Source: Nanoarchaeum equitans Kin4-M (GTDB lineage: Archaea; Nanobdellota; Nanobdellia; Nanobdellales; Nanoarchaeaceae). From it: a DNA stretch of 32,000 bases. The stretch covers positions 60,001 to 92,000 of the forward strand of contig AE017199.1 of assembly GCA_000008085.1 (NCBI GenBank), written 5' to 3'. Shown here piece by piece: positions 1,066 to 30,296 of the stretch (the stretch's first letter is position 1; each line of letters opens with the position of its first letter). A program made the translations under genes and the position numbers. The notes beneath the pieces are model-generated. The model did no database searches. It was not told where the DNA came from and worked only from the letters and a program-made list of their open reading frames with translations.

Positions 1066-4144
<3,079 letters not shown>

Positions 4145-7482: not shown

Positions 7483-8070
7483 TTATTGGTATTGCGATAT
7501 AATTTTTTGCTTTACCTCTTCGAAATGGTTTGGCAATTGCTCTGGGTCTAAGCCTTCTTTTAAATAGCGAGAGAATTGCTTTTTGTATAGCTCTTCGTTC
7601 TCTTTTAACATTTTCGCGTAATTAGCGATGTGTTCCCCTCTAATTCTATCTTCGCTTGGCAATATAGTTTCGCTATGTGGTATATTTAAACCAGCGTCTA
7701 AAGCACCTTTCAATACTGCATATAAAGCGTTACCTTTTGTGGATTTGTACCTACCTATATCTAATACAGCCTCTTTGTAACCTCTCTTTAACGCTTCATA
7801 CCCAGCAATTAAACCAACCAAATATGCTGATGGTAGGTTTCCTCTATGTCCTTTCCATCCATATTTTTTCAACACATTAGAATGGATAGTAAATATAACT
7901 CTATCTCCTTTAGGATCATATTCTACTAATTGAGCTAAGATATTTGAATTAAACCTTCTTACTACTAACCTGGGTTTGCCTGAAAGTAAAAGCTTTAGCC
8001 TTTTTCTATAGACGGTTTTGCCTTCTCGCCTTCTTCTAAAGGGTACTCTATATCTAGGGCCATGTGCCAT
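7483..8070 (-). CDS. rpl18: Ribosomal protein uL18 (L18/L5e)
   Basis: [39 protein letters not shown]... is a canonical archaeal L18 N-terminus. Confidence 0.95.
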
Positions 8071-8090
8071 TCAACGCTTTTCATCAAATA

Positions 8091-8098
8091 TTTATAAA
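8091..8098 (+). promoter_or_regulatory. TATA box TTTATAAA, 26 nt upstream of ATG 8124 (aCPSF1)
   Basis: Read directly. It lies in the spacer between the divergent uL18 and aCPSF1 genes. Confidence 0.5.
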
Positions 8099-8123
8099 GT
8101 ATAAATCCATTGCCTCAACGTTT

Positions 8124-9971
8124 ATGGAGTTACTTGAGGAAATATTCAAATATATAGATAAAAACAAAATAATAGGCTATCGATTCGAAGGGCCAAAAGT
8201 AGTGCTATTTACAAGAGACAAAGAGCTTTTAGTAAAAGCCCCACAGATATTACAAGAGATTGCCAAAAAAGTAAGGAGAAGAATACATATTAGATATGAT
8301 CCAAGACTTCTAAAGGAGGAACCAGAAAAAATAGAAAAACTAATACCAAAAGAAGCAGGATTGCAAAGAATTTATTTCGAAAAGGGAAGGGGCATAGTAA
8401 ATATAGAGGTTTTATTCCCTGAAAAGATAGATTTGAATACAATAAATAAAATAAAAGAAGAAACACTTTGGTTCCCTAGAATATATAGAAGCCCATTGAT
8501 TAGATCGAAAACTATCGATATGGTTAGAGCTTATATGTTCCAACATTCTAACGAAAGAATAAAGCTTTTGCATGAAATAGGTAAAAATATTAGTGAAAAG
8601 TGGTCTATACAAAAAGGACAAACCTGGGTTAGAGTAAGCTTTTTAGGGGGAGCATCCCAAGTTGGGAGGTCTGCATTGTTATTACAAACGAAAGAGAGCA
8701 GAATACTATTAGATTTTGGGGTTGATTTGTCTTTACCTCCAAACAACAAAAATGCTTACCCCATTGTAGAATTGCCAGAATTTGATGTTAAAGAATTAGA
8801 CGCTGTAGTAATTACCCATGCACATTTAGACCATGTAGGATTTGTGCCATTTTTATATAAAATGGGCTACAAGGGCCCGGTATATTTAACACCCCCAACA
8901 TTAGATATCGCTACTCTTAGTTTGTTAGATTATTTAAGAATAGCCAATGAAAACAATGTCAAACTATTTAGCGGGGACGATATAAGAAATTTTGTAAAGC
9001 ATTCTATTACTATAGAATATGGCCAAACTACAGACATCGCTTCTGATGTAAAATTAACTTTTTACAATGCGGGCCATATACTAGGATCGGCATTGGCCCA
9101 TCTAAATATAGCCAATGGTTATTCTAATGTATTATATACTGGGGATTATAAGGTTAAACCAACTTTCCTATTTGATGGTGCTCAAATCCCACAAGCAAAA
9201 GTCAATATCGCTATTACTGAATCAACCTATGGAGATACCTATCATAAACCTAGAGAAGAAGTAGAAAAAGAATTTTTATCATTTGTAAAAGAGGTAATAA
9301 AAAGAAAAGGCAAACTATTAATACCTGTTTTAGGCGTAGGAAGAGCCCAAGAGATATTGTATTTATTGGTTAAATCAATAAGGGCTAACAAATTAGATGA
9401 AGTCCCTATATATTTAGATGGTGTAGTATGGGAAATTACTGCTATACACACAGCTTATCCCGAATATCTCAAAGAGGAAATTAGAAACAAAATATTAGCT
9501 GGGAAAAACCCATTTATTGATAAATTTGTTCATAGGGCTCCAAGAAATAGAGAGGAAATAGTTTATTCAACAGAACCATCTATAATATTGGCTACTTCTG
9601 GTATGCTAGTTGGAGGCCCATCTGTGCAATACCTAAAGCTAATGGCAGAAGATCCTAAAAACGCCATAGCTTTTGTTAGCTATCAAGGGCCTAACACATT
9701 AGGAAGACAAATACAAAGCGGGGTAAGAGAAGTAGAAATAGATGGCCAATTAATAAAAATAAACTTAGAAGTAAGATCTTTTGAAGGTTTTTCTGGCCAT
9801 GCCGATAAAGGGGAAATAGAATCTTTCTTAAGAAGGGTTAGACCAGGCAGAGTAGTAATAAACCATGGAGAGAGAAGCAAAGTATTGCATTTGGCTTCTT
9901 ATTTAAGAAAAAAGCTTAATGTAGAAACCAACGCCCCAAGGAATATGGATGCACTAGCATTAAGGATATAA
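8124..9971 (+). CDS. aCPSF1: KH-domain + metallo-beta-lactamase/beta-CASP ribonuclease
   Basis: N-terminal KH-like region, MBL motif 'VITHAHLDHVG', beta-CASP region, and C-terminal 'GFSGHADKGE...INHGE'. I prefer the start at the ATG at 8124 (MELLEEIF...) over the ORF-track start at 8064. The longer form overlaps the divergent L18 start, and a TTTATAAA box lies at 8091-8098, 26 nt upstream of 8124. Confidence 0.9.
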   Translation: MELLEEIFKYIDKNKIIGYRFEGPKVVLFTRDKELLVKAPQILQEIAKKVRRRIHIRYDPRLLKEEPEKIEKLIPKEAGLQRIYFEKGRGIVNIEVLFPEKIDLNTINKIKEETLWFPRIYRSPLIRSKTIDMVRAYMFQHSNERIKLLHEIGKNISEKWSIQKGQTWVRVSFLGGASQVGRSALLLQTKESRILLDFGVDLSLPPNNKNAYPIVELPEFDVKELDAVVITHAHLDHVGFVPFLYKMGYKGPVYLTPPTLDIATLSLLDYLRIANENNVKLFSGDDIRNFVKHSITIEYGQTTDIASDVKLTFYNAGHILGSALAHLNIANGYSNVLYTGDYKVKPTFLFDGAQIPQAKVNIAITESTYGDTYHKPREEVEKEFLSFVKEVIKRKGKLLIPVLGVGRAQEILYLLVKSIRANKLDEVPIYLDGVVWEITAIHTAYPEYLKEEIRNKILAGKNPFIDKFVHRAPRNREEIVYSTEPSIILATSGMLVGGPSVQYLKLMAEDPKNAIAFVSYQGPNTLGRQIQSGVREVEIDGQLIKINLEVRSFEGFSGHADKGEIESFLRRVRPGRVVINHGERSKVLHLASYLRKKLNVETNAPRNMDALALRI

Positions 9972-11223: not shown

Positions 11224-12033
11224 ATGGACAAACTATATTTTGGCCCCGCAGGTATACCAAATAGTGCTGAAAAAAGAGACTTATTAAATGGACTTAAAAC
11301 AGTTAAAAATTTAGGATTAGATGCGATGGAATTAGAATTCGTATATGGTGTAAGATACAACCCAAGGGTTTTACCTTTAGTTAAAGAATTCGCCCAAAAA
11401 AATAATATAGTACTTACGGCCCATGCTCCATATTATATTAATTTAGCTGCAAAAGAAAAGGAAAAAATAGAAAAAAGCATTAAGTATATCCTAGATACTG
11501 CCAGAGTTTTAAATGAACTAAATGGTTATAGCATAGTATTTCATCCTGGCTATTATATGAAAAGAGATCCTAAAGAGGTTTATAAGATAGTGAAAGAAAA
11601 TTTGGCCAAAGTATTAGAAATGGCAAACCAAGAAGGAATCAAAGTATGGATTAGACCAGAAACTATGGATTTACCTTCAAGGTTTGGCTCTTTAGAAGAA
11701 ACGTTTGAATTAGCTAGAGAATTGGGAACATTGCCTTGTATAGATTTTGCCCATCTAAGATATAGATATAAAAACAATAAACCCGAATTCTTTAGACAAG
11801 TTTTAGAAAAATATGAAGAATATTTTGGTAAAGAAGGTTTAAAGAATATGCATATCCATATGTCCGGTATAAACCTAGATCCAAGAGCATCGCACAAAAA
11901 TTTAAAAGAATCCGATATGCCATGGCAAGAAATATTAGATTTACTAAAAGAATTTAATGCTAAAGGAGTAGTAATTAGCGAATCCCCTAATTTGGAAGAA
12001 GATGCTATAATGATGAAAAAATACTATGGATAG
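11224..12033 (+). CDS. nfo: Endonuclease IV-type AP endonuclease (xylose-isomerase-like TIM barrel)
   Basis: 'LTAHAPYYINLAA', 'IVFHPG', 'IRPETM', 'IDFAHL' and 'HIHMSG' are the spaced metal-ligand His/Glu/Asp pattern of Endo IV. The stop codon overlaps the tRNA-Gln 3' end on the other strand. Confidence 0.85.
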   Translation: MDKLYFGPAGIPNSAEKRDLLNGLKTVKNLGLDAMELEFVYGVRYNPRVLPLVKEFAQKNNIVLTAHAPYYINLAAKEKEKIEKSIKYILDTARVLNELNGYSIVFHPGYYMKRDPKEVYKIVKENLAKVLEMANQEGIKVWIRPETMDLPSRFGSLEETFELARELGTLPCIDFAHLRYRYKNNKPEFFRQVLEKYEEYFGKEGLKNMHIHMSGINLDPRASHKNLKESDMPWQEILDLLKEFNAKGVVISESPNLEEDAIMMKKYYG

Positions 12034-12103
12034 CCCCGCCCGGATTCGAACCGGGGTCACGGGGACCAGAGCCCCGCATGCTAGGCCGCTACACCACGGG
12101 GCT
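12032..12103 (-). tRNA. tRNA-Gln (anticodon CUG), 72 nt, no intron, no encoded CCA
   Basis: The minus strand reads AGCCCCG TG GTGT AGCGGCCTA GCAT G CGGGG CTCTGGT CCCCG TGAC CCCGG TTCGAAT CCGGG CGGGGCT. It has a perfect 7-bp acceptor stem, 5-bp anticodon and T stems, a TTCGAAT T-loop and a CT-CTG-GT anticodon loop. The discriminator would be A (nt 12031). Confidence 0.9.
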
Positions 12104-12122
12104 AGTATATTCTTTTAATTCC

Positions 12123-16787: not shown

Positions 16788-16799
16788 ATTTTTAAATAA
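16788..16799 (+). promoter_or_regulatory. TATA-like box (ATTTTTAAATAA) about 23 nt upstream of the EF-1alpha ATG
   Basis: Position counted from ATG 16817. Confidence 0.45.
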
Positions 16800-16816: not shown

Positions 16817-18118
16817 ATGCCTAGAGAGAAACCCCACATCAATGTAGTATTCATAGGACATGTAGACCATGGTAAGTCTACCACAGTAGGTAGGCTAAAA
16901 TATGATTTAGGTTTAATACCAGAGTCCGAATTGGAGAAAATTAGAGAAGAAGCTAAAAAGTATGGTAAGGAGGAATTCGTATTTGCTTATCTAATGGATA
17001 GACAAAAAGAAGAGAGAGCCAGAGGTGTTACAATTGATATAGCTCATACAGAATTGGAAACCCCACACAATTACATTACAATTGTTGACGCTCCTGGCCA
17101 CAAAGACTTCGTAAAGAACATGATTACTGGAGCGTCTCAAGCAGATGCGGCAGTATTAGTAGTAGCAGCAGACGACGGTGTACAAGAACAAACCCAAGAA
17201 CACGCAGTATTAGCAAGAACATTCGGTATAAACCAAATAATTGTATACATAAACAAAATGGATAAGGTTAACTACGACCAAAAAAGATTCGAAGAGGTGA
17301 AAAACCAAGTATTAAAACTATTGAAAATGATTGGATACAAAGATGAAAACATTATTGCTGTAATTCCTGGGGCGTCTTTCCATGGAGACAATGTAGTAAA
17401 GAAATCTGACAAAATGCCTTGGTACAATGGACCAACATTGTATGAAGCTTTAGACATGTTAAAACCCCCACAATTACCAGTTGATTTGCCATTAAGAATA
17501 CCAATACAAAGCGCATTATCCATAAAAGGTATTGGTACAGTATTAACAGGAAGAGTAGAGACTGGTAAACTAAAACCAGGTGACAAAATAATTGTTTTAC
17601 CATCCAAGAAGCCAAACGGTGCGATTGGGGAAGTTAAATCTATAGAAATGCATCACAAACCATTAGAAGAAGCATTGCCTGGAGACAACATAGGTTTTAG
17701 CGTAAGAGGTATCGAAAAGGGTGATGTAATGAGAGGAGATGTTGCAGGCCATTTGGATAACCCACCAACAGTTGCAGAGGAGATAGTAGCGTTAATACAT
17801 GTTATATACCATCCATCTGCAATAACCGTTGGTTATGCCCCAGTATTACATGTACACACAGCACATGTCCCAGTAAGGTTTGAAGAGCTAAGAGGTAAAG
17901 TAAACCCCGCAACTGGACAAGTAATTGAAGAAAACCCGCAAGCATTAAGGCCAGGTGAAGCAGCAGTAGTAAAATTAAAACCATTGAAACCAGTAGTAAT
18001 AGAACCATTCGATAAAATCCCACAATTAGGAAGATTCGCTATTAGAGATATGGGTAGAACTGTAGCAATAGGGATCGCAAGACAGGTAACGCCCAAACAA
18101 ATTGAAATCAAAAAATAA
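16817..18118 (+). CDS. tuf: Translation elongation factor aEF-1alpha
   Basis: 'GHVDHGKST', 'DAPGH', 'NKMD' and a full three-domain length (433 aa). Confidence 0.97.
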
Positions 18119-18447
18119 TGCCTTTCTTAAGAATTAAAATTTATTCTACTGATTTAGAAGAATTAAATAGGGTAGTAGAAAAAATAAAAGAGATAGTTAA
18201 ACAAACAGGTGTAAAGATGAGAGGCCCAATACCTTTACCAACCAAAATATTAAGAGTCCCAGTATTAAGAATTACTGGGCATAGAGGTACAAAAATATGG
18301 GACACCTACCAAATGAGAATCCATAGAAGGATTATAGATATTGCCACAGATGATAGAACAATAAAATTGTTGATGAGAACTCCTTTAATTACTAAACCCG
18401 AAAAAATACAAATTCAACTAAAATATATTAAGGATAAAAACTTATAA
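18118..18447 (+). CDS. rps10: Ribosomal protein uS10 (S10)
   Basis: 'RIKIYSTDLEELNRVVEKIKEIVKQTGVKMRGPIPLPTK' is a canonical S10. TAATG overlap with tuf, the conserved archaeal EF-1alpha-S10 pair. Confidence 0.95.
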   Translation: MPFLRIKIYSTDLEELNRVVEKIKEIVKQTGVKMRGPIPLPTKILRVPVLRITGHRGTKIWDTYQMRIHRRIIDIATDDRTIKLLMRTPLITKPEKIQIQLKYIKDKNL

Positions 18448-18468
18448 ATTCTTTAAGGCCCTATCTTT

Positions 18469-19527
18469 ATGAAAGTTGTACCATTAGATTTTCCATTGGG
18501 GGAAGCAGTAAAGTTATTAGAGGAAGAAGATTTGCTAGCTAGCAAAAAAGAAGATACTGTTTTAGGGACTAACGAATATGTTTTACTAAAAAAATCTGCA
18601 TGGAAAATGCCAGTTAATACAAAATTTGAGAGTTATTCTGTACCAATCCCAACAATAGATGGGAAAAACGATTACGAAATTGCAAAACTAATGTTTGAAA
18701 CAAGGTTTTTAGAATTGCCAAATGAAGACCTTACAAAATCTATACATTATACAGATTTGCTAAAAAAATACAAAGATAAAATAATTACTAACCCAACCAG
18801 GTATTTTGGAGACTATATAGATGTGCAAGCTAGTGAAACGGTATTAGCAGTATTGTATGAAATGAAAAGACAAAAAGTAGAATACGCTACAGTTTTAGAG
18901 GGGGAAAAACCAATTGGTGTAATTTCTTTGAAAGATATATTCTCTAAAATAATATTTCCAAAGAAAAAGCCAAGAGAAGGTGAATTCGTTGACGAATATG
19001 ATAGGCCATTAAAATTACCAATAAGAGAATTCGTAAACGATGTAGTAATAGAGACCGACGATATAAAAGAAGTAATAGAGCTAATGTTAGATAAAAACGT
19101 TAGATCTGTGCCTTTGTTAGTTAATGGCAGATATGTTGGAACAATTACTGTGGATGAAATATTAAAAGAAATAGGTTACATAGAAGAAAAGGGCAAATAT
19201 TTTATACATGTGCATTCTAATGTAGATTTGTATGAGGATGATTACGATTATATAGAAAAGGAATTTGTAAGAAAAGTATGGAGAAAATATAAAGACTATT
19301 TGGAAACCGCTACTTTATATTTAGACATAAAAAGGGAAAAAGGTGTTTTGCCCGACAATATAGAATATTTTTGGCATGTTTCTGCTAGGTTAATAACACC
19401 AAAAGGCAAATTCGTTGCTAGAGTAGTGGGACCTTCTTTGTATAGCGCTATCAAAATGATTATGAGAGAACTAGTTTATGAAATAAAGAAAAAGAAAGAA
19501 GAATCGATAGAATTCGATATAGTATGA
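18469..19527 (+). CDS. CBS-domain protein with a C-terminal HPF/RaiA (S30AE)-like domain
   Basis: CBS motifs at about aa 55-100, 115-160 and 185-236 (e.g. 'PIGVISLKDIF', 'VRSVPLLVNGRYVGTITVDEILKEI'). Residues 243-345 follow the beta-alpha-beta-beta-beta-alpha pattern of HPF. For example, 'GPSLYSAIKMIMRELVYEIKKKK' compares with E. coli HPF 'GQDMYAAIDGLIDKLARQLTKHK'. Confidence 0.6.
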   Translation: MKVVPLDFPLGEAVKLLEEEDLLASKKEDTVLGTNEYVLLKKSAWKMPVNTKFESYSVPIPTIDGKNDYEIAKLMFETRFLELPNEDLTKSIHYTDLLKKYKDKIITNPTRYFGDYIDVQASETVLAVLYEMKRQKVEYATVLEGEKPIGVISLKDIFSKIIFPKKKPREGEFVDEYDRPLKLPIREFVNDVVIETDDIKEVIELMLDKNVRSVPLLVNGRYVGTITVDEILKEIGYIEEKGKYFIHVHSNVDLYEDDYDYIEKEFVRKVWRKYKDYLETATLYLDIKREKGVLPDNIEYFWHVSARLITPKGKFVARVVGPSLYSAIKMIMRELVYEIKKKKEESIEFDIV

Positions 19528-20051
19528 AAAGAACTATAATTTTATTGCTATCTGCTTTAGCATTAGGAGTAGCTTTATCGCAAATTGCTTTTCTTTTAGA
19601 AATAAAATTAGACATAAAGAAAACCACAGATTATATAATTAGACCATATAAAACATCAAAAATCGTTAATGCTATAATTTTAGATGGAAACCAATTTGAA
19701 GGGCAGGACAATCAAACATATGTTATTCCATTATATATAAAAGGAAACGGAAAATACAAATTTTCTATAGAACTAAAAAATTTTGATGGTAGCGCTTTAT
19801 TAGCTATTGGTTTGTTCGATTCAGATAATAAAGAGTTTGGCGAACAATATAATATAAAAGCTTATTATAACAGCACAAATCCAAAATATTTCAATCCTTA
19901 TAAATATATCGTTTGCAACAAAGATTGTTCTTTATTGTATAACACAACAATAGAAAGCGAAAAGCGTTTTGTGATCCTTTTACATATATACAATATAAAT
20001 GAGAACAAAACTATAACATTATCGATTAGGGCAAATGAGGTTCCAAATTAA
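19524..20051 (+). CDS. Secreted/anchored protein (175 aa) with N-glycosylation sequons
   Basis: N-terminal 'MKRTIILLLSALALGVALSQIAFLL' signal/anchor. Beta-rich body with NQT, NST, NTT and NKT sequons. ATGA overlap with the upstream CBS gene. Confidence 0.55.
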   Translation: MKRTIILLLSALALGVALSQIAFLLEIKLDIKKTTDYIIRPYKTSKIVNAIILDGNQFEGQDNQTYVIPLYIKGNGKYKFSIELKNFDGSALLAIGLFDSDNKEFGEQYNIKAYYNSTNPKYFNPYKYIVCNKDCSLLYNTTIESEKRFVILLHIYNINENKTITLSIRANEVPN

Positions 20052-21528
20052 TGATTTCTTAGATATAGAGTATAGCGAGCAATATCCCCAAAAGATATCT
20101 GAAATAGAGTGGGCATTCCCTTCAAAGAAAAAATATGACGAGTTTTTGGGGGAATTATTATTTAATATCCAATTAATGGATTTAAAATTATCAAAAAAAC
20201 TTAGAGAGGAATATTTTGCCACTCCCTATAGTCCAATATCGAAAATGTTTGGCCAAACTGTAAGTGGGTTATTCCAAAATGTTTCCAATTTGGGTAAACT
20301 AATTAACGATCTAACTAGGGCAATAATAAGTCATATACAAGAATTGTATGGTATTAGAGAGAAATTGGACATAATAAAAGATGCCTGTGCGGATGAGAAC
20401 TGTGAAAAACTAAAATTTTTCATAACAAAAGATATGGAAAAAGAATTCAAAAAAATTGAAGAAAAATATGGAGAAATAGTTTCAGAAAGAATGATTAATC
20501 CTGCAGTATTGTATTTGAAAAGCCTATGGTTAAACAATTCTGAATATGGGCAAAGAATAAAAGCTTTAACTAATATAGCGCCGAGCATAATAGATTATTT
20601 TAACGCTATAGAGAATGAAGAGGAGGCTTACAAATTGCCAACTAATGAAAGAATAAAAAGAATCGTAGCGAGTGCAATAAAGCATTTTAGAAAATGGCTT
20701 ATACAATATAACAAACTATTGAAAGCTAGATACCAAATGCAAAAAGCTTATTTGAAAATGCAGTTAGCTTATTTATATACTTATCTAAGGATACTTCAAC
20801 CATATCTAAGAGCTTTGTATGCTTTTAACCAAAAATATGTTTCCCCTACAGAACCGTTAATTAATTTTACAAACAAAATGGTTTGGGAATTAGAATTTCT
20901 TATAGAAATAGACAAAAAAGGCAAATTTATCGCTTGTTTATGGGTTAAGGTAAAGCTATCTGGTTCGGGTAATGAGTTAAATTTGTTACAAAACCCCTCT
21001 GTAAATATATTAGTCCAAACTTTGGTTTTGAGTGAAGATGATTACAAAGAATTAGACAGAAAAATAAACCAAGATATAATAATGGCATTTCAACAATTGT
21101 TAAATATGTCTTTAGATCAATTCAAAGAGTTAATAATATATATATTCGAAGACGAAATTGATAATAATACTATTCCAGGGTTAGAGTGGTTAATAACTAA
21201 AGAAGACATAGAAAAGTATAAAAACAAAAACAAAAAAGAGGAGAAAAAAGAAGAAAAAAAGGAAGAGAAGAAAGAGGAAAAAGAAGAGAAGAAAAAGAAA
21301 TGGTGCAATTTGCCAATATTGGATGCTTTGTGTGGGTTATATTTGGCTTTCAAACCATTGTTTTCCCTATTGCCTAAAAAACCAGAGAAAAAAGAGGAAA
21401 AGAAAGAAGAAGAAAAAGATGATAAAAAAGACTGGGAAGAAGCTAAAAATAAAGCTATAGAAAAAACTAACGACTTGTTCAAAACTATAGCCAAAATAGC
21501 AGAATTGCCATTAAAAGATGCTTTATAA
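20035..21528 (+). CDS. Hypothetical helical protein (497 aa) with two Lys/Glu repeat tracts flanking a hydrophobic segment
   Basis: 17-nt overlap with the upstream ORF. Heptad-like 'KARYQMQKAYLKMQLAYLYTYLRILQPYLRALYAF'. C-terminal 'KKEEKKEEKKEEKKEEKEEKKKK - WCNLPILDALCGLYLAFKPLFSLLP - KKPEKKEEKKEEEKDDKKD'. Confidence 0.55.
   Translation: MRFQINDFLDIEYSEQYPQKISEIEWAFPSKKKYDEFLGELLFNIQLMDLKLSKKLREEYFATPYSPISKMFGQTVSGLFQNVSNLGKLINDLTRAIISHIQELYGIREKLDIIKDACADENCEKLKFFITKDMEKEFKKIEEKYGEIVSERMINPAVLYLKSLWLNNSEYGQRIKALTNIAPSIIDYFNAIENEEEAYKLPTNERIKRIVASAIKHFRKWLIQYNKLLKARYQMQKAYLKMQLAYLYTYLRILQPYLRALYAFNQKYVSPTEPLINFTNKMVWELEFLIEIDKKGKFIACLWVKVKLSGSGNELNLLQNPSVNILVQTLVLSEDDYKELDRKINQDIIMAFQQLLNMSLDQFKELIIYIFEDEIDNNTIPGLEWLITKEDIEKYKNKNKKEEKKEEKKEEKKEEKEEKKKKWCNLPILDALCGLYLAFKPLFSLLPKKPEKKEEKKEEEKDDKKDWEEAKNKAIEKTNDLFKTIAKIAELPLKDAL
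21232..21300 (+). repeat. 69-nt uninterrupted homopurine (A/G only) tract encoding the (E/K)n repeat; a second 36-nt tract lies at 21384-21419
   Basis: Read directly: every base from 21232 to 21300 is a or g. Confidence 0.9.
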
Positions 21529-25020: not shown

Positions 25021-26202
25021 CTATTTTAGTTTTTCTTTATAAATTTTCTTTAGCTTTGCTTTAATTTGTGGGAACACATAGAATAAATAAGAGAAAAGCC
25101 CAAACAATATTGCTGAAGCATAAGATAATATAGTGGCAATTATAGCACCTTTGATTGAATATTTTGGTATCAAAATCAAATCGAAGAATATATTAACTAT
25201 TAGTGAAATCCATAAAGCTATAGCGCTTAAATGGGGGAATCCTTTATATTCGAACAAAACATTTATATAGGATAGGCTATCCAAAAACACAATTGGCAAA
25301 GCTATTAAAGTTAAATCATAAACTATTTCGTATTGTTTTCCCAACAATAAAACTATAACTTTTTTGCCCAGCAAAATAAAAGCTATAGCAAAAATAATGG
25401 CTATTAAAGAATGGTAAAATATTGTTTTTCCCAATAGCTTTAGAGAATCTTTCCAGTTTAAATCCCTAATAGCTGGAGCTAAAACGTTTCTAGCATTGAA
25501 TATATTTAATAAAGCCTCTATTGTTTGTGAGACCAATTTGTATATACCAGCATCTTTAAGAGAAAGCAAAAAACCCACAATCATCGTATCTGTTATATAA
25601 TAGGTGTTTTTGGCCAAATTTATTAAATTATAACTAATTAAATGGTATAGCTCACTTTTTGTTAGATTTTTCACAGTAATTTTCGGTTTAATATAGATAA
25701 ACAATGCCGATGCTATTAGAAAATCTGTTATTACCCAGTCTAAAAATATGTTTCGAGAAAAAAGAGAGATAATTAACTTTAAAATAGCATCCAATAGCAT
25801 AGATATAGAATATAAATCATATTGGTAGTTGGCTATAAGATTAGCTCTCAAAGTCATAATAAAAGCTAGGAATATACTATCCAATACTAGCAATAAATAT
25901 ATTATTGGATCCGAAATTAAAGATTGTAAAAAATAGTACAAACCTAAGAAAATAGGCAAAAAAATTATTATTCCTGCTAAAATTATACCATAGTATTTAG
26001 TATCTTTGTATTTGATTATTTGTTGGGCTGTCCCAAGGTTTATTAATAAAGCATAAGTCATAGTAAGGCTTGTAAATATTACGAACAAACCAAAACTATT
26101 TGAATCTAGCCTTCTCGCTAATATTATTGTTATTGCGGAATAAATTAAAGTGCTAATTAAAGTGCCGAGCTTTTCGTTAATAAGATTATTGAGAATTTTC
26201 AA
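25021..26202 (-). CDS. Polytopic membrane protein, Wzx/MOP-type oligosaccharide flippase-like
   Basis: About 10-12 hydrophobic helices. The N-terminal 'LGTLISTLIYSAITIILARRLDSNSFGLFVIFTSL' is typical of polysaccharide-biosynthesis/flippase proteins. Confidence 0.55.
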   Translation of the reverse strand: MKILNNLINEKLGTLISTLIYSAITIILARRLDSNSFGLFVIFTSLTMTYALLINLGTAQQIIKYKDTKYYGIILAGIIIFLPIFLGLYYFLQSLISDPIIYLLLVLDSIFLAFIMTLRANLIANYQYDLYSISMLLDAILKLIISLFSRNIFLDWVITDFLIASALFIYIKPKITVKNLTKSELYHLISYNLINLAKNTYYITDTMIVGFLLSLKDAGIYKLVSQTIEALLNIFNARNVLAPAIRDLNWKDSLKLLGKTIFYHSLIAIIFAIAFILLGKKVIVLLLGKQYEIVYDLTLIALPIVFLDSLSYINVLFEYKGFPHLSAIALWISLIVNIFFDLILIPKYSIKGAIIATILSYASAILFGLFSYLFYVFPQIKAKLKKIYKEKLK

Positions 26203-27040
26203 TTTTATCTTTTATTTCGTCATATAATAGTTTAGCAGCATTTTCTGCTCTAATTAAAATTTGGTCTATAACTTCTTTAGAAGGTATGCCCAATTCTATG
26301 GCTAAACCAATAGAACTTCTATGGGCTTTAATTAATAGTTCGTCAATTATTTCTTTAGTAGGTATAGCTAATTCTATAGCTAAACCTCTAGCTTTTATAT
26401 AAGCGTCTTTCAATTGCTCTATATATAGATCTAATGGAGTATTCAATATTTGTTTGTCATAGAATACTTCATCTTTAGCGGCTATAAGAGTTACTTGCCT
26501 TTCTATTGGTTTTATACCCAAAGTTTGTAAAACATTGGCAACTTTTGGACTTACTATTTCCCCTTCTTTTACAACTACAGCGTCTTCTACAATCTCTATT
26601 TTACCACTAGTGACTTTGGTTTTAACTCCCAATGCCCTAAGCTCTGTTTGTATTGGACCCACAGGTATATTGGTTATACCCTTTGGAATAACTATATCTT
26701 TTGGAGCAATTTCCCCTGCTTTTATCGGGACATTAACTTTATGTTCCATGAATATTTTTGCTATTTTGAATATGTTCTCGTTTGTGCTTAATAATAAAGC
26801 TGTTACCTCTTTTTCTTTTTCCAATTCGTTAGCCAAATCTTCGTAACCAGTCTCTTTCAATGCTCTAATTATTAACCTTTTTTTAGAAACTCTCATATTA
26901 GCTAGGTTTCTAACTTCTTTTCTAATTCTTTGTAAATCTCTCGTAGGGATCCCCCTAATATTAGCAATTGCTACAGTTTTACCTTTTTTTATAATATCTT
27001 TTAACCTATTAACCTCTTCAACCTTAGAAGGATTTACCAT
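26186..27040 (-). CDS. rplP0: Ribosomal stalk protein uL10 (P0), short form without an acidic C-terminal tail
   Basis: 'KVEEVNRLKDIIKKGKTVAIANIRGIPTRDLQRIRKEVR...MRVSKKRLIIRAL' is a canonical P0 N-domain. A 26-aa tandem repeat GLAIELAIPTKEIIDELLIKAH / GLAIELGIPSKEVIDQILIRAE lies at nt 26243-26386. The protein ends ...KDKIENSQ. Confidence 0.9.
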   Translation of the reverse strand: MVNPSKVEEVNRLKDIIKKGKTVAIANIRGIPTRDLQRIRKEVRNLANMRVSKKRLIIRALKETGYEDLANELEKEKEVTALLLSTNENIFKIAKIFMEHKVNVPIKAGEIAPKDIVIPKGITNIPVGPIQTELRALGVKTKVTSGKIEIVEDAVVVKEGEIVSPKVANVLQTLGIKPIERQVTLIAAKDEVFYDKQILNTPLDLYIEQLKDAYIKARGLAIELAIPTKEIIDELLIKAHRSSIGLAIELGIPSKEVIDQILIRAENAAKLLYDEIKDKIENSQ

Positions 27041-27068: not shown

Positions 27069-27470
27069 TTAGACTATAATTCTAGCAATTTTTGCGAGAT
27101 CTGGCCACCTCTCTGCAACTTCTTTAGCTATTGGAGTTTTTATTATTGTTCCTTTTGGAGTTCCATAGTCGTCTTTTAATAACGCTACAGCGTTATCCTC
27201 AAACTTAATTCTTGTTCCATCTCTTCTACGCCACTCTTTTTTCATTCTAACTACTACTGCTTTGAATATTTGCCCTATCATATCTGGTTTTCCATCTCTT
27301 ACAGATACAATAACTAAATCAGCAATACCTGCTTTAGCGAGTCTTCTTTTTCTGCCTTTGTAACCTTTTACTGCAATAAGCTTTACAACTTTTGCTCCAG
27401 AGTTATCTGCCACATTTAAATAAGCACCAACAGGTAAAGCTCTTACTATTGAAGCACTTATTGGTTTCAT
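27069..27470 (-). CDS. rpl14: Ribosomal protein uL14 (L14)
   Basis: 'LNVADNSGAKVVKLIAVKGYKGRKRRLAKAGIADLVIVSVRDGKP' is a canonical L14. Confidence 0.95.
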   Translation of the reverse strand: MKPISASIVRALPVGAYLNVADNSGAKVVKLIAVKGYKGRKRRLAKAGIADLVIVSVRDGKPDMIGQIFKAVVVRMKKEWRRRDGTRIKFEDNAVALLKDDYGTPKGTIIKTPIAKEVAERWPDLAKIARIIV

Positions 27471-28886: not shown

Positions 28887-29444
28887 ATGGTTTCTCTAAA
28901 AATGGAGATTTATAACTATGGAACTCAAGATAACGCTTTAGTTATAGAAATGAAAAGAGGAGAATCGATTAATCTAAAAAAGGGGTCACTTATTTTTATT
29001 AAAGGTAAACATGCAATAAAACCATCAAAAGAGAATAGTTTCTTTTTATTAGAATGCCTCGGGCATTGTTCTGTAGGTGTTTCGATGGGTATTGGTAAAA
29101 AAGAAATAATAAATGTTATTGAGCCTTTATATATAAATATGAATAATGTAATTGGCTTTTACAATGCTAAATATGTAAAACTGGGCAAAAAAATAATAGA
29201 TTATAATACTTCTATGGATCTAATTTATACAAGGGAAGGTAATTACATTTTGTCTTACAAAGGGGATAAACTAGAACTTAGAATAGGAAATGAAAAAGTT
29301 TTAGTAGATTTGGACAATTTGGTTCTAACTAATGGCAAAATAAAATTTATCCCTCATAAAAATGCTGTAATAACAGGGGAAGAACCATTGTTAGCAGAAA
29401 TCGAAGGCCCAGCAATAATATATTTGCAAACCATCACTTTATAA
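28887..29444 (+). CDS. AIM24/DUF124-like beta-rich protein (start possibly ATG 28902)
   Basis: 'YNYGTQDNALVIEMKRGESINLKKGSLIFIKG' and the C-terminal 'EIEGPAIIYLQTITL' resemble the family's N- and C-terminal signatures. The TATA-like 'ttatttaaaaataaa' at 28873-28887 fits the 28902 start better. Confidence 0.45.
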   Translation: MVSLKMEIYNYGTQDNALVIEMKRGESINLKKGSLIFIKGKHAIKPSKENSFFLLECLGHCSVGVSMGIGKKEIINVIEPLYINMNNVIGFYNAKYVKLGKKIIDYNTSMDLIYTREGNYILSYKGDKLELRIGNEKVLVDLDNLVLTNGKIKFIPHKNAVITGEEPLLAEIEGPAIIYLQTITL

Positions 29445-29465: not shown

Positions 29466-30296
29466 ATGGGTAAAATAATAAGCGCTATACAAATTGCTTA
29501 CGAAGGAGGAATAGATTTAGATACTTTGAAAAGAATGCTTAAATCATATAAACCCAAAGGAAATGTTATTCCCGATGTTGTTACTAAGCATTATAGAGAT
29601 TTGGAATTTGGCCAACTAAAAGGGGTTAGAATAGTAAGAATCGCAACCCATCCAGATTTTCAAGGAAAAGGATTTGGTTCAATAGCATTAAAAGAAATGT
29701 CTCAAGATCTAAAAAATAAAGGATTTCATTGGATTGGTACTGGTTTTGGAGCAACAGTTAAACTATTAAATTTTTGGCTAAAAAATGGTTTTATTCCAGT
29801 CCATATAAGTCCGGAAAAAAACCCCGCTACTGGAGAATACTCGGTTGTAGTTATAAAACCATTGTCTAAAAAAACAGAAGAAATAATAAAAAGGGTTAAT
29901 TTTGAATTTAAATGGAAATTTTTAAATTCTGTTACAGATGTTTTTTTCGATATAGAGCCCAAATTGGGAGTAATGTTAACTTATAGCCCATATAAGCATA
30001 GCTTAGAGAAGCATGGCATTAAAATATTTACAGATGTTCAATTGGATAGAATAAAGCTTTATATTAATGGACCTATGACATATGAAGCTGCGGCAGATCT
30101 AGTTAGGCTTTTAGCTATTAAACATTTTGTTGAGAGAAAAATCGAACTACCAATAGAAAAAGAAGAAAAGTTGTTTGCCAAATCTTTATTGGCATGGAGC
30201 TGGAAAAAGATGTCGGAATATTATGACAAAAAGCCTTCAAAGCTTAGAGACGAAATAAGAAAGATATGCAAAGAATTATACCGTTCCTATTTCTAA
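29466..30296 (+). CDS. tmcA: tRNA(Met) cytidine acetyltransferase TmcA, free-standing C-terminal half (GNAT + tRNA-binding tail); the helicase half is absent from the window
   Basis: 'GVRIVRIATHPDFQGKGFGSIALKEM' matches the TmcA/NAT10 acetyl-CoA motif (RIVRIAVHPDxQxxGYGS). It is preceded by 'IQIAYEGGI...GNVIPDVV', typical of the region just after the helicase domain. There is no P-loop anywhere in this ORF or in the upstream ORF. Confidence 0.8.
   Translation: MGKIISAIQIAYEGGIDLDTLKRMLKSYKPKGNVIPDVVTKHYRDLEFGQLKGVRIVRIATHPDFQGKGFGSIALKEMSQDLKNKGFHWIGTGFGATVKLLNFWLKNGFIPVHISPEKNPATGEYSVVVIKPLSKKTEEIIKRVNFEFKWKFLNSVTDVFFDIEPKLGVMLTYSPYKHSLEKHGIKIFTDVQLDRIKLYINGPMTYEAAADLVRLLAIKHFVERKIELPIEKEEKLFAKSLLAWSWKKMSEYYDKKPSKLRDEIRKICKELYRSYF

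Follow-up and report, generated by a model that had tools for sequence, protein, structure and literature searches.

NEQ084 of Nanoarchaeum equitans is very probably a compact orthologue of the archaeal ribosome hibernation factor HibA

We analysed a 32-kb window of the Nanoarchaeum equitans Kin4-M genome (the whole stretch of DNA considered here, with a G+C content of ~31%), which carries on its forward strand the gene NEQ084. Its product has been labelled only 'NEQ084' or 'CBS domain' in the sources since the 2003 genome of this model minimal archaeon, and a literature search found no paper that names NEQ084, Q74MI4 or AAR38940. Here we assign it a function: NEQ084 is very probably the HibA (AHA) orthologue of N. 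equitans, an archaeal hibernation factor that acts on 70S ribosomes. The translated open reading frame (ORF) matches the N. equitans Kin4-M protein NEQ084 (AAR38940.1 / Q74MI4) with 100% identity, and a first-pass annotation of this DNA had placed it at exactly the right coordinates. A longer N-terminus is ruled out, because the stop codon of the upstream S10 gene (TAA, 18445-18447) lies in the same reading frame. The gene and the parts of its product are listed below; Pa-HibA is the HibA of Pyrococcus abyssi, PTC the peptidyl-transferase centre, and AF2 denotes AlphaFold2 structure prediction.

18469..19527, forward strand: NEQ084, a hibA-family gene, with an ATG start and 352 amino acids (aa) plus the stop codon
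18469..18603, forward strand: CBS1, about aa 1-45, from the AF2 secondary structure and the CBS-tetrad superposition
18616..18780, forward strand: CBS2, about aa 50-104, from the AF2 model and the Pa-HibA contact list
18793..18954, forward strand: CBS3, about aa 109-162, from Pfam CBS and the AF2 model
18955..19020, forward strand: aa 163-184, the extended loop that follows CBS3 and corresponds to the Pa-HibA PTC loop (190-207)
19021..19179, forward strand: CBS4, about aa 185-237, containing the best Pfam CBS stretch (193-235)
19195..19521, forward strand: C-terminal HPF/RaiA-fold domain, from AF2 models, Foldseek, profile matches and hhalign
19333..19371, forward strand: aa 289-301 ('REKGVLPDNIEYF'), the loop that joins HPF strands 2 and 3

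Archaeal hibernation factors that join CBS and HPF domains are already known as a kind, having been established by electron cryomicroscopy (cryo-EM), genetics and phylogenomics in 2025-26. HibA was characterised in P. abyssi and Thermococcus barophilus, and PDB entry 9SR9 with its seven sister entries (9SR9-9SRF, 9T7H) holds cryo-EM structures of the P. abyssi protein on 70S ribosomes (Madru et al., Nat Commun 2026, PMC13324472). It is defined by four CBS domains (residues 1-269) followed by an HPF/RaiA-like domain (270-392), and is present in 47% of archaeal genomes (PMC13324472); the set of 4026 genomes surveyed for it includes N. equitans (GCF000008085) (PMC13324472). An independent study described the same architecture for AHA (HVO_2384) of Haloferax volcanii and found its homologues across 17 phyla of archaea (Souza et al., bioRxiv 2026, PMC12934967). 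Given this distribution, the view given in the first-pass annotation, by which factors of the S30AE fold are regarded as bacterial and plastid proteins, is outdated.

Among solved structures, the best match to the whole of NEQ084 was the Pa-HibA chain 9sr9_H (E 4.4e-14, query residues 5-339 against chain residues 18-372), at an overall identity of ~20%. A 72-member family profile matched the same chain end to end (E 2.3e-125), and also matched the second solved CBS-HPF chain, 9l96_a (406 aa), at E 1.2e-84. When the CBS module was considered alone, Pa-HibA was again nearest, and its match was the only one to cover all four CBS units. A word-indexed homologue search reached only five close nanoarchaeal proteins; an exhaustive HMMER search with three nanoarchaeal queries returned 392 cluster representatives (E <= 1e-3), most of them 360-400 aa long and matched end to end. 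Named relatives come from Archaeoglobus, Thermococcus, Nitrososphaerota and Woesearchaeota, and one of them is already labelled 'CBS domain-containing protein/ribosome-associated translation inhibitor RaiA'. The link between NEQ084 and HibA rests on these sequence matches: a full-length fold search gave CBS-tetrad proteins and not HibA, because the Foldseek PDB set, which runs to 2026-04-08, does not contain 9SR9.

The full-length AF2 model (mean predicted local distance difference test score, pLDDT, 92.5) resolves the CBS module into four beta-alpha-beta-beta-alpha units. Three CBS motifs had been counted from the sequence beforehand; the number is corrected to four by this model and by its superposition on four-CBS proteins, Foldseek aligning it with MJ1225, SriA, Dri and AMPK-gamma over 260-290 columns. 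Pfam CBS matched NEQ084 at E 4.7e-15, in two stretches only. CBS1 begins ~13 aa later than its counterpart in Pa-HibA, and CBS2 contains conserved residues for contacts with helices H69/H71 of the 50S subunit (P59, P61, K73, L74 and E77). The ribose-phosphate motif of CBS3 (G-h-h-S-x-x-D) is intact as G150-V-I-S-L-K-D156, and in CBS4 it reads G224-T-I-T-V-D-E230, with a conservative change of the usual Asp to Glu. Among the 72 family members, G150 is the sole invariant column, and G224 and T227 are nearly invariant. Pa-HibA binds adenosine monophosphate (AMP) with a dissociation constant of 12 uM, against 65 uM and 113 uM for the di- and triphosphates, ADP and ATP (PMC13324472), and AHA carries two AMP molecules at the junction of CBS3 and CBS4 (PMC12934967). 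By homology, NEQ084 probably binds one or two adenylates, AMP being preferred, at the same junction.

The segment between CBS3 and CBS4 (aa 163-184) aligns to the Pa-HibA PTC loop at a similar length and retains five of its contact residues in identical form (P164, K167, E172, E176 and P180). No other block is as well conserved across the three nanoarchaeal proteins, in which F158-Y177 is almost invariant. Its pLDDT is lower, at 62-70, as is expected because such a loop orders only on the ribosome; in AHA, the CBS3 loop is seen inside the PTC (PMC12934967).

The C-terminal domain has the layout of HPF/RaiA, with strand 244-250, helix 256-278, strands 281-291, 300-310 and 313-321, and helix 324-351 in the AF2 model; modelled alone, it adopts the identical layout at a pLDDT of 93.3. 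The six segments picked out by the first-pass annotation coincide with these predicted elements. In a Foldseek search of the isolated domain against the PDB, the top 24 matches were all HPF/RaiA/pY chains (E down to 5.9e-7, TM up to 0.84, root-mean-square deviation 2.1-3.6 A). At the level of sequence profiles, a C-terminal-domain profile built from 48 sequences matched Pa-HibA first among PDB chains (2.8e-34) and thereafter almost exclusively bacterial and plastid HPF/RaiA/pY chains, including 4v8h_AX (1.8e-7), Escherichia coli HPF (3.9e-7, over its residues 3-93) and RaiA (1e-5). A direct hhalign comparison of this profile with E. coli HPF, whose sequence we checked to be identical to 2rql_A, gave a probability of 95.4% (E 1.9e-8, 91 columns). 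It placed 'LYSAIKMIMRELVYEIKKKK' on 'MYAAIDGLIDKLARQLTKHK' of E. coli HPF, bearing out the likeness of the last helix that the first-pass annotation had noticed. Individual matches to PF02482 (S30AE) at E <= 0.01 were found in 20 of the 72 aligned relatives, the best at 1.8e-8. The similarity of the NEQ084 C-terminus to HPF is therefore significant at the sequence-profile level, beyond fold alone, and the proposed S30AE relationship survived the profile and fold comparisons that had been suggested for it.

A conceivable alternative is that NEQ084 is a generic CBS adenylate sensor of some non-ribosomal partner, such as an HhpR-like regulator or replication proteins, with a C-terminus that merely looks like HPF in structure. 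Weak NCBIfam matches to PrdR and HhpR point in this direction, as do pull-downs in Thermococcales that recovered HibA with replication and recombination proteins (PMC13324472). However, those family matches lie far below cutoff (21.3 against 795 bits, and for HhpR (CM-3), NF053603, 18.2 against 520 bits) and involve only the CBS units, the HPF similarity is significant at the profile level, and structures show the full-length orthologue bound to ribosomes. We consider such a role very improbable. Nor does NEQ084 belong to the other ribosome-related classes: it is neither a stand-alone HPF (~95-115 aa) nor a long HPF with a dimerisation domain, neither a stand-alone tetrad of the Sri/ARC type nor a Dri-like double tetrad lacking HPF. 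Pfam and the AF2 model detected no further domain beyond the CBS tetrad and HPF in its 352 aa.

The protein is also made in large amounts. In the spectral counts of co-culture and of purified N. equitans (Table S1, Giannone et al. PLoS One 2011, PMC3149612), NEQ084 reaches adjusted counts of 259 (co-culture) and 575 (purified), or 566 and 514 after rebalancing and length normalisation (PMC3149612). The corresponding rebalanced values are 269 and 250 for S10 (NEQ083), 2850 and 2260 for EF-1alpha, and 163 and 187 for LysRS (PMC3149612). NEQ084 thus stands at about twice the level of S10 and is made at or above ribosomal-protein level, like Pa-HibA, which is as abundant as ribosomal proteins (PMC13324472).

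To compare the ribosome contacts, we transferred the published list for the PTC state of Pa-HibA (Supplementary Data 1) to NEQ084 via a Thermococcus protein (P0028), which aligns gap-free to Pa-HibA residues 1-389 and whose row in the family alignment bridges to NEQ084. On the large-subunit side, 12 of the 28 Pa-HibA residues that contact 23S ribosomal RNA or uL16 are identical in NEQ084 (W45, P59, P61, K73, L74, E77, P164, K167, E172, E176, P180 and E187), against the ~20% identity of the two proteins as a whole. The loop between the second and third HPF strands is an insertion of 8-9 residues relative to E. coli HPF in the hhalign alignment, and aligns to Pa-HibA 322-330, which touches G496, A1461 and uS12; MAFFT and phmmer agree on this alignment. 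Its sequence is specific to nanoarchaea, reading GVLPDNIEYF in NEQ084 against EKFRGVHL in Pa-HibA, and this version is kept in the other two nanoarchaeal sequences (P0002, P0003).

Several observations weigh against the assignment to HibA. On the small-subunit side, only 8 of the 53 Pa-HibA contacts are identical, with 18 similar and 9 falling in the missing tail, and contacts that are otherwise conserved in the family are changed (Y317->D286, E323->G292, R326->P295, R366->Y337 and R290->Y259). The tail that reaches h23, uS7, uS11 and eS28 in Pa-HibA is largely absent, and the C-terminal end is ~12 aa shorter even than in the nanoarchaeal relatives. The Asp that binds ribose in CBS4 is replaced. 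Curated models score NEQ084 below their cutoffs, PF02482 giving 13.9 bits at full length and 16.2 bits when only the C-terminus is searched (cutoff 23.7) and TIGR00741 (yfiA) 14.6-15.3 bits (cutoff 40.9). The weak Pfam score arises because the domain is divergent, and with single-sequence scores below threshold, family profiles and structure prediction were needed. Nor is the C-terminal divergence a strong argument against function, because replacing 324-KFRGVHL-330 of Pa-HibA by AA together with deletion of 283-285 left inhibition unchanged (PMC13324472), and the equivalent loop is thus dispensable there.

The same divergence could mean that NEQ084 descends from HibA but acts differently, keeping the 50S/PTC module while its remodelled HPF domain has lost the usual way of engaging the decoding centre; it might then be constitutively associated with ribosomes, the role first given to plastid PSRP1/pY, or act chiefly from the 50S side, and not as a stress-induced 70S clamp. 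The poorly conserved 30S contacts, the short tail and the nanoarchaeal-specific loop would fit this, as would the high abundance of NEQ084 in both co-culture and purified cells, with no obvious dependence on stress. We nevertheless regard it as improbable, since the model shows an intact HPF fold with high confidence, since in Pa-HibA the loop can be dispensed with while inhibition of translation in vitro depends on the whole C-terminal domain (PMC13324472), and since Pa-HibA is just as abundant. NEQ084 has the architecture, the fold and the full-length homology of HibA, a retained PTC loop with its 50S contacts, and high abundance. These findings support the core of the first-pass annotation, in which a CBS adenylate module joined to an HPF/RaiA domain was read as a hibernation factor.

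By homology with HibA, we infer that NEQ084 itself would bind ribosomes, inhibit translation and bind nucleotides. It would attach to vacant 70S ribosomes with both ends, the HPF/RaiA-fold domain lying, like bacterial HPF, at the A and P sites within the messenger and transfer RNA channel of the small subunit, and the four-CBS disc taking the place of tRNAs on the large subunit. The long loop after CBS3 would reach into the PTC, AMP would be held at the CBS3/CBS4 junction, and the outcome would be an intact, protected and translationally silent 70S ribosome. In HibA, the C-terminal domain keeps one fixed place in the 30S mRNA/tRNA channel, and the CBS module takes three positions on the 50S subunit, at the PTC, uL5 and the L1 stalk (PMC13324472). 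Deletion of hibA in T. barophilus lowered 70S pools by ~60% and doubled the lag before regrowth (PMC13324472).

Whether the energy state of the cell gates this silencing is unproven even for the characterised HibA/AHA proteins. Nucleotides had no effect on the binding of HibA to ribosomes in vitro (PMC13324472). AMP left its conformational classes unchanged, and ATP added one weakly populated uL5 state (PMC13324472). We can picture a rather unlikely scenario in which the Nanoarchaeales have streamlined HibA (352 aa, a short tail and a lineage-specific 'GV(L/D)PDNIEYFW' loop at the decoding site that co-evolved with the ribosome), in which its high and seemingly constitutive level, about twice that of S10, means that most ribosomes are parked, and in which their release follows an adenylate status that depends on the host. 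If this were true, translation in N. equitans would be gated directly by its host Ignicoccus. The host-dependent N. equitans would be an attractive test case for adenylate-gated release of a hibernation factor.

Upstream of NEQ084 on the same strand lie the genes for EF-1alpha (16817..18118) and S10 (18118..18447), the latter separated from NEQ084 by 21 nucleotides. Since the sigma-70 promoter and terminator scan is a bacterial model and uninformative for an archaeon, we used the register of TATA-like boxes instead, which identified the following element.

18442..18449, forward strand: TATA-like box TTATAAAT, whose first base lies 27 nucleotides upstream of the ATG and which overlaps the TAA of S10

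A TTTAAA/TTTATA/TTATAA box at -28 to -24 precedes 16 of the 34 genes in the window, compared with 5.9% of random positions; other examples stand at 16791 (EF-1alpha) and 12132 (RtcB). Genes that touch or overlap their upstream neighbour have no such box; S10 and the ORFs starting at 19524 and 20035 are examples. The box at 18442..18449 is probably the promoter of NEQ084 itself: it is in register with those of 15 other gene starts, and NEQ084 therefore probably heads its own transcription unit of the leaderless type. The overall pattern suggests that N. equitans transcripts in the window are mostly leaderless and that operon boundaries can be read from the sequence.

This evidence bears on a third possibility, namely that NEQ084 is a co-transcribed part of an EF-1alpha/S10 operon with a role in elongation rather than hibernation, for which its position 21 nucleotides downstream of S10 on the same strand would speak. 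The TATA-like box at -27 argues against it, and so do the neighbours of its relatives. The orthologue has S4e/S14 beside it on one further nanoarchaeal contig, and L29/SUI1/histone and L18Ae/S2 on another, but EF-1alpha/S10 on neither; on the Archaeoglobus, Thermococcus, Nitrososphaerota and Woesearchaeota-like contigs, none of its neighbours is a ribosomal-protein or translation-factor gene. Furthermore, the six ribosomal-protein genes of the window are spread over its 32 kb singly or in pairs, not in the usual large operons:

3752-4144: S11
7483-8070: L18
18118-18447: S10
26186-27040: P0 (L10)
27069-27470: L14
28346-28855: L5

Because ribosomal-protein genes are scattered in this way through the N. 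equitans genome, a translation gene as neighbour is expected by chance. We hold an elongation role to be extremely improbable, and a conserved EF-1alpha-S10-hibA operon was rejected in view of the separate box and the differing neighbours. The first-pass annotation was thus right to place EF-1alpha and S10 directly upstream, but the translation-related meaning it drew from them does not stand. As a separate observation, several of the scattered ribosomal-protein genes appear to carry promoter boxes of their own.

Downstream, two further genes follow on the same strand:

19524..20051, forward strand: NEQ085, 175 aa with a hydrophobic N-terminus, its start overlapping the hibA stop codon (ATGA)
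20035..21528, forward strand: NEQ086, overlapping NEQ085, with (E/K)-rich repeats near its C-terminus

No TATA-like box precedes NEQ085, which may be co-transcribed with hibA. A functional link between the two is doubtful, because NEQ085 is at least 15-fold less abundant and is not adjacent to hibA in relatives. The rebalanced counts are 0 and 35 for NEQ085 and 17 and 21 for NEQ086 (PMC3149612), so that each lies at least 15-fold below NEQ084 in proteomics. The 2011 proteome table flags NEQ085 for a signal peptide and a transmembrane segment (PMC3149612). Neither NEQ085 nor NEQ086 gave a Pfam or PADLOC match, and a defence role for NEQ084, NEQ085 or NEQ086 was rejected for want of PADLOC support.

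Elsewhere in the window, an AIM24-family gene (28887..29444, forward strand) adjoins L5, and its counterpart in a related nanoarchaeal contig (2607..3170) adjoins S5; in genomes this compact, the recurring closeness to genes for ribosomal proteins may have arisen by chance. The FttA/aCPSF1 homologue (8064..9971, forward strand) has a listed GTG start that overlaps the start of the divergent L18 gene (7483..8070, reverse strand) by 7 nucleotides and has no TATA-like box ahead of it, and its true start may be an internal codon. At 1786..3816 on the reverse strand lies a 676-aa fragment of a family-B DNA polymerase, with an exonuclease domain but only positions 13-239 of the 453 in the polymerase-domain profile. 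It appears to come from a PolB gene that is split in two and to be the N-terminal half, and no C-terminal half lies in the 32-kb window. A 276-aa ORF at 29466..30296 (forward strand) has only the GNAT_acetyltr_2 part of a TmcA-type tRNA cytidine acetyltransferase, with no helicase/ATPase part, and may be another split or truncated gene. The tRNA-Gln(CTG) gene at 12027..12104 (reverse strand) overlaps the last few bases of an endonuclease IV-like ORF on the opposite strand (11224..12033).

Taken together, a 490-kb genome of an obligate symbiont keeps a very probable hibernation factor and expresses it at ribosomal-protein levels, from which we argue that ribosome parking is near-indispensable in archaea.

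Among known systems, AMPK gamma and MJ1225 share with NEQ084 a disc of four CBS domains in which the adenylate sites lie where CBS3 meets CBS4, but their partner is a kinase and they have neither a PTC loop nor an HPF domain. A further group is formed by the ribosome-binding CBS-tetrad proteins Dri of Pyrobaculum calidifontis (9E6Q/9E7F), SriA-D of Methanosarcina acetivorans (9ZNF/9ZNG/9ZNI) and ARC-A/P. The NEQ084 model superposes on these proteins with TMt 0.58-0.66, and they too have a long loop after CBS3; unlike NEQ084, none of them has an HPF domain, Dri consisting of two tetrads and the Sri proteins of stand-alone tetrads, and in sequence NEQ084 is less like them than like HibA.

The bacterial and plastid HPF/RaiA proteins (YfiA, pY) resemble NEQ084 from the other end, with significant profile similarity across the entire domain, and the HPF domain of HibA/AHA sits at the same 30S site as bacterial HPF (PMC13324472, PMC12934967). 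In contrast to bacterial HPF, NEQ084 scores below the curated cutoffs, has the 8-9 residue insertion between strands 2 and 3, and carries its HPF domain fused behind a CBS tetrad, without the C-terminal dimerisation domain of long HPF.

HibA and AHA combine both halves. With AHA, NEQ084 shares the CBS-tetrad and HPF architecture, HVO_2384 being set beside it here by its published description. With HibA, it shares four CBS units and an HPF/RaiA-fold domain that align end to end, the long post-CBS3 loop with conserved PTC and H69/H71 contacts, the archaeal insertion between HPF strands 2 and 3 (Pa-HibA 324-330) and ribosome-level abundance. It differs from HibA in being 40 aa shorter (352 against 392), with a shortened N-terminus and C-terminal tail, and in the replacement of several conserved basic or aromatic 30S contacts. 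What is specific to NEQ084 is thus a compact nanoarchaeal version of the factor, its tail short and its decoding-site loop remodelled, present in large amounts in an obligate symbiont.

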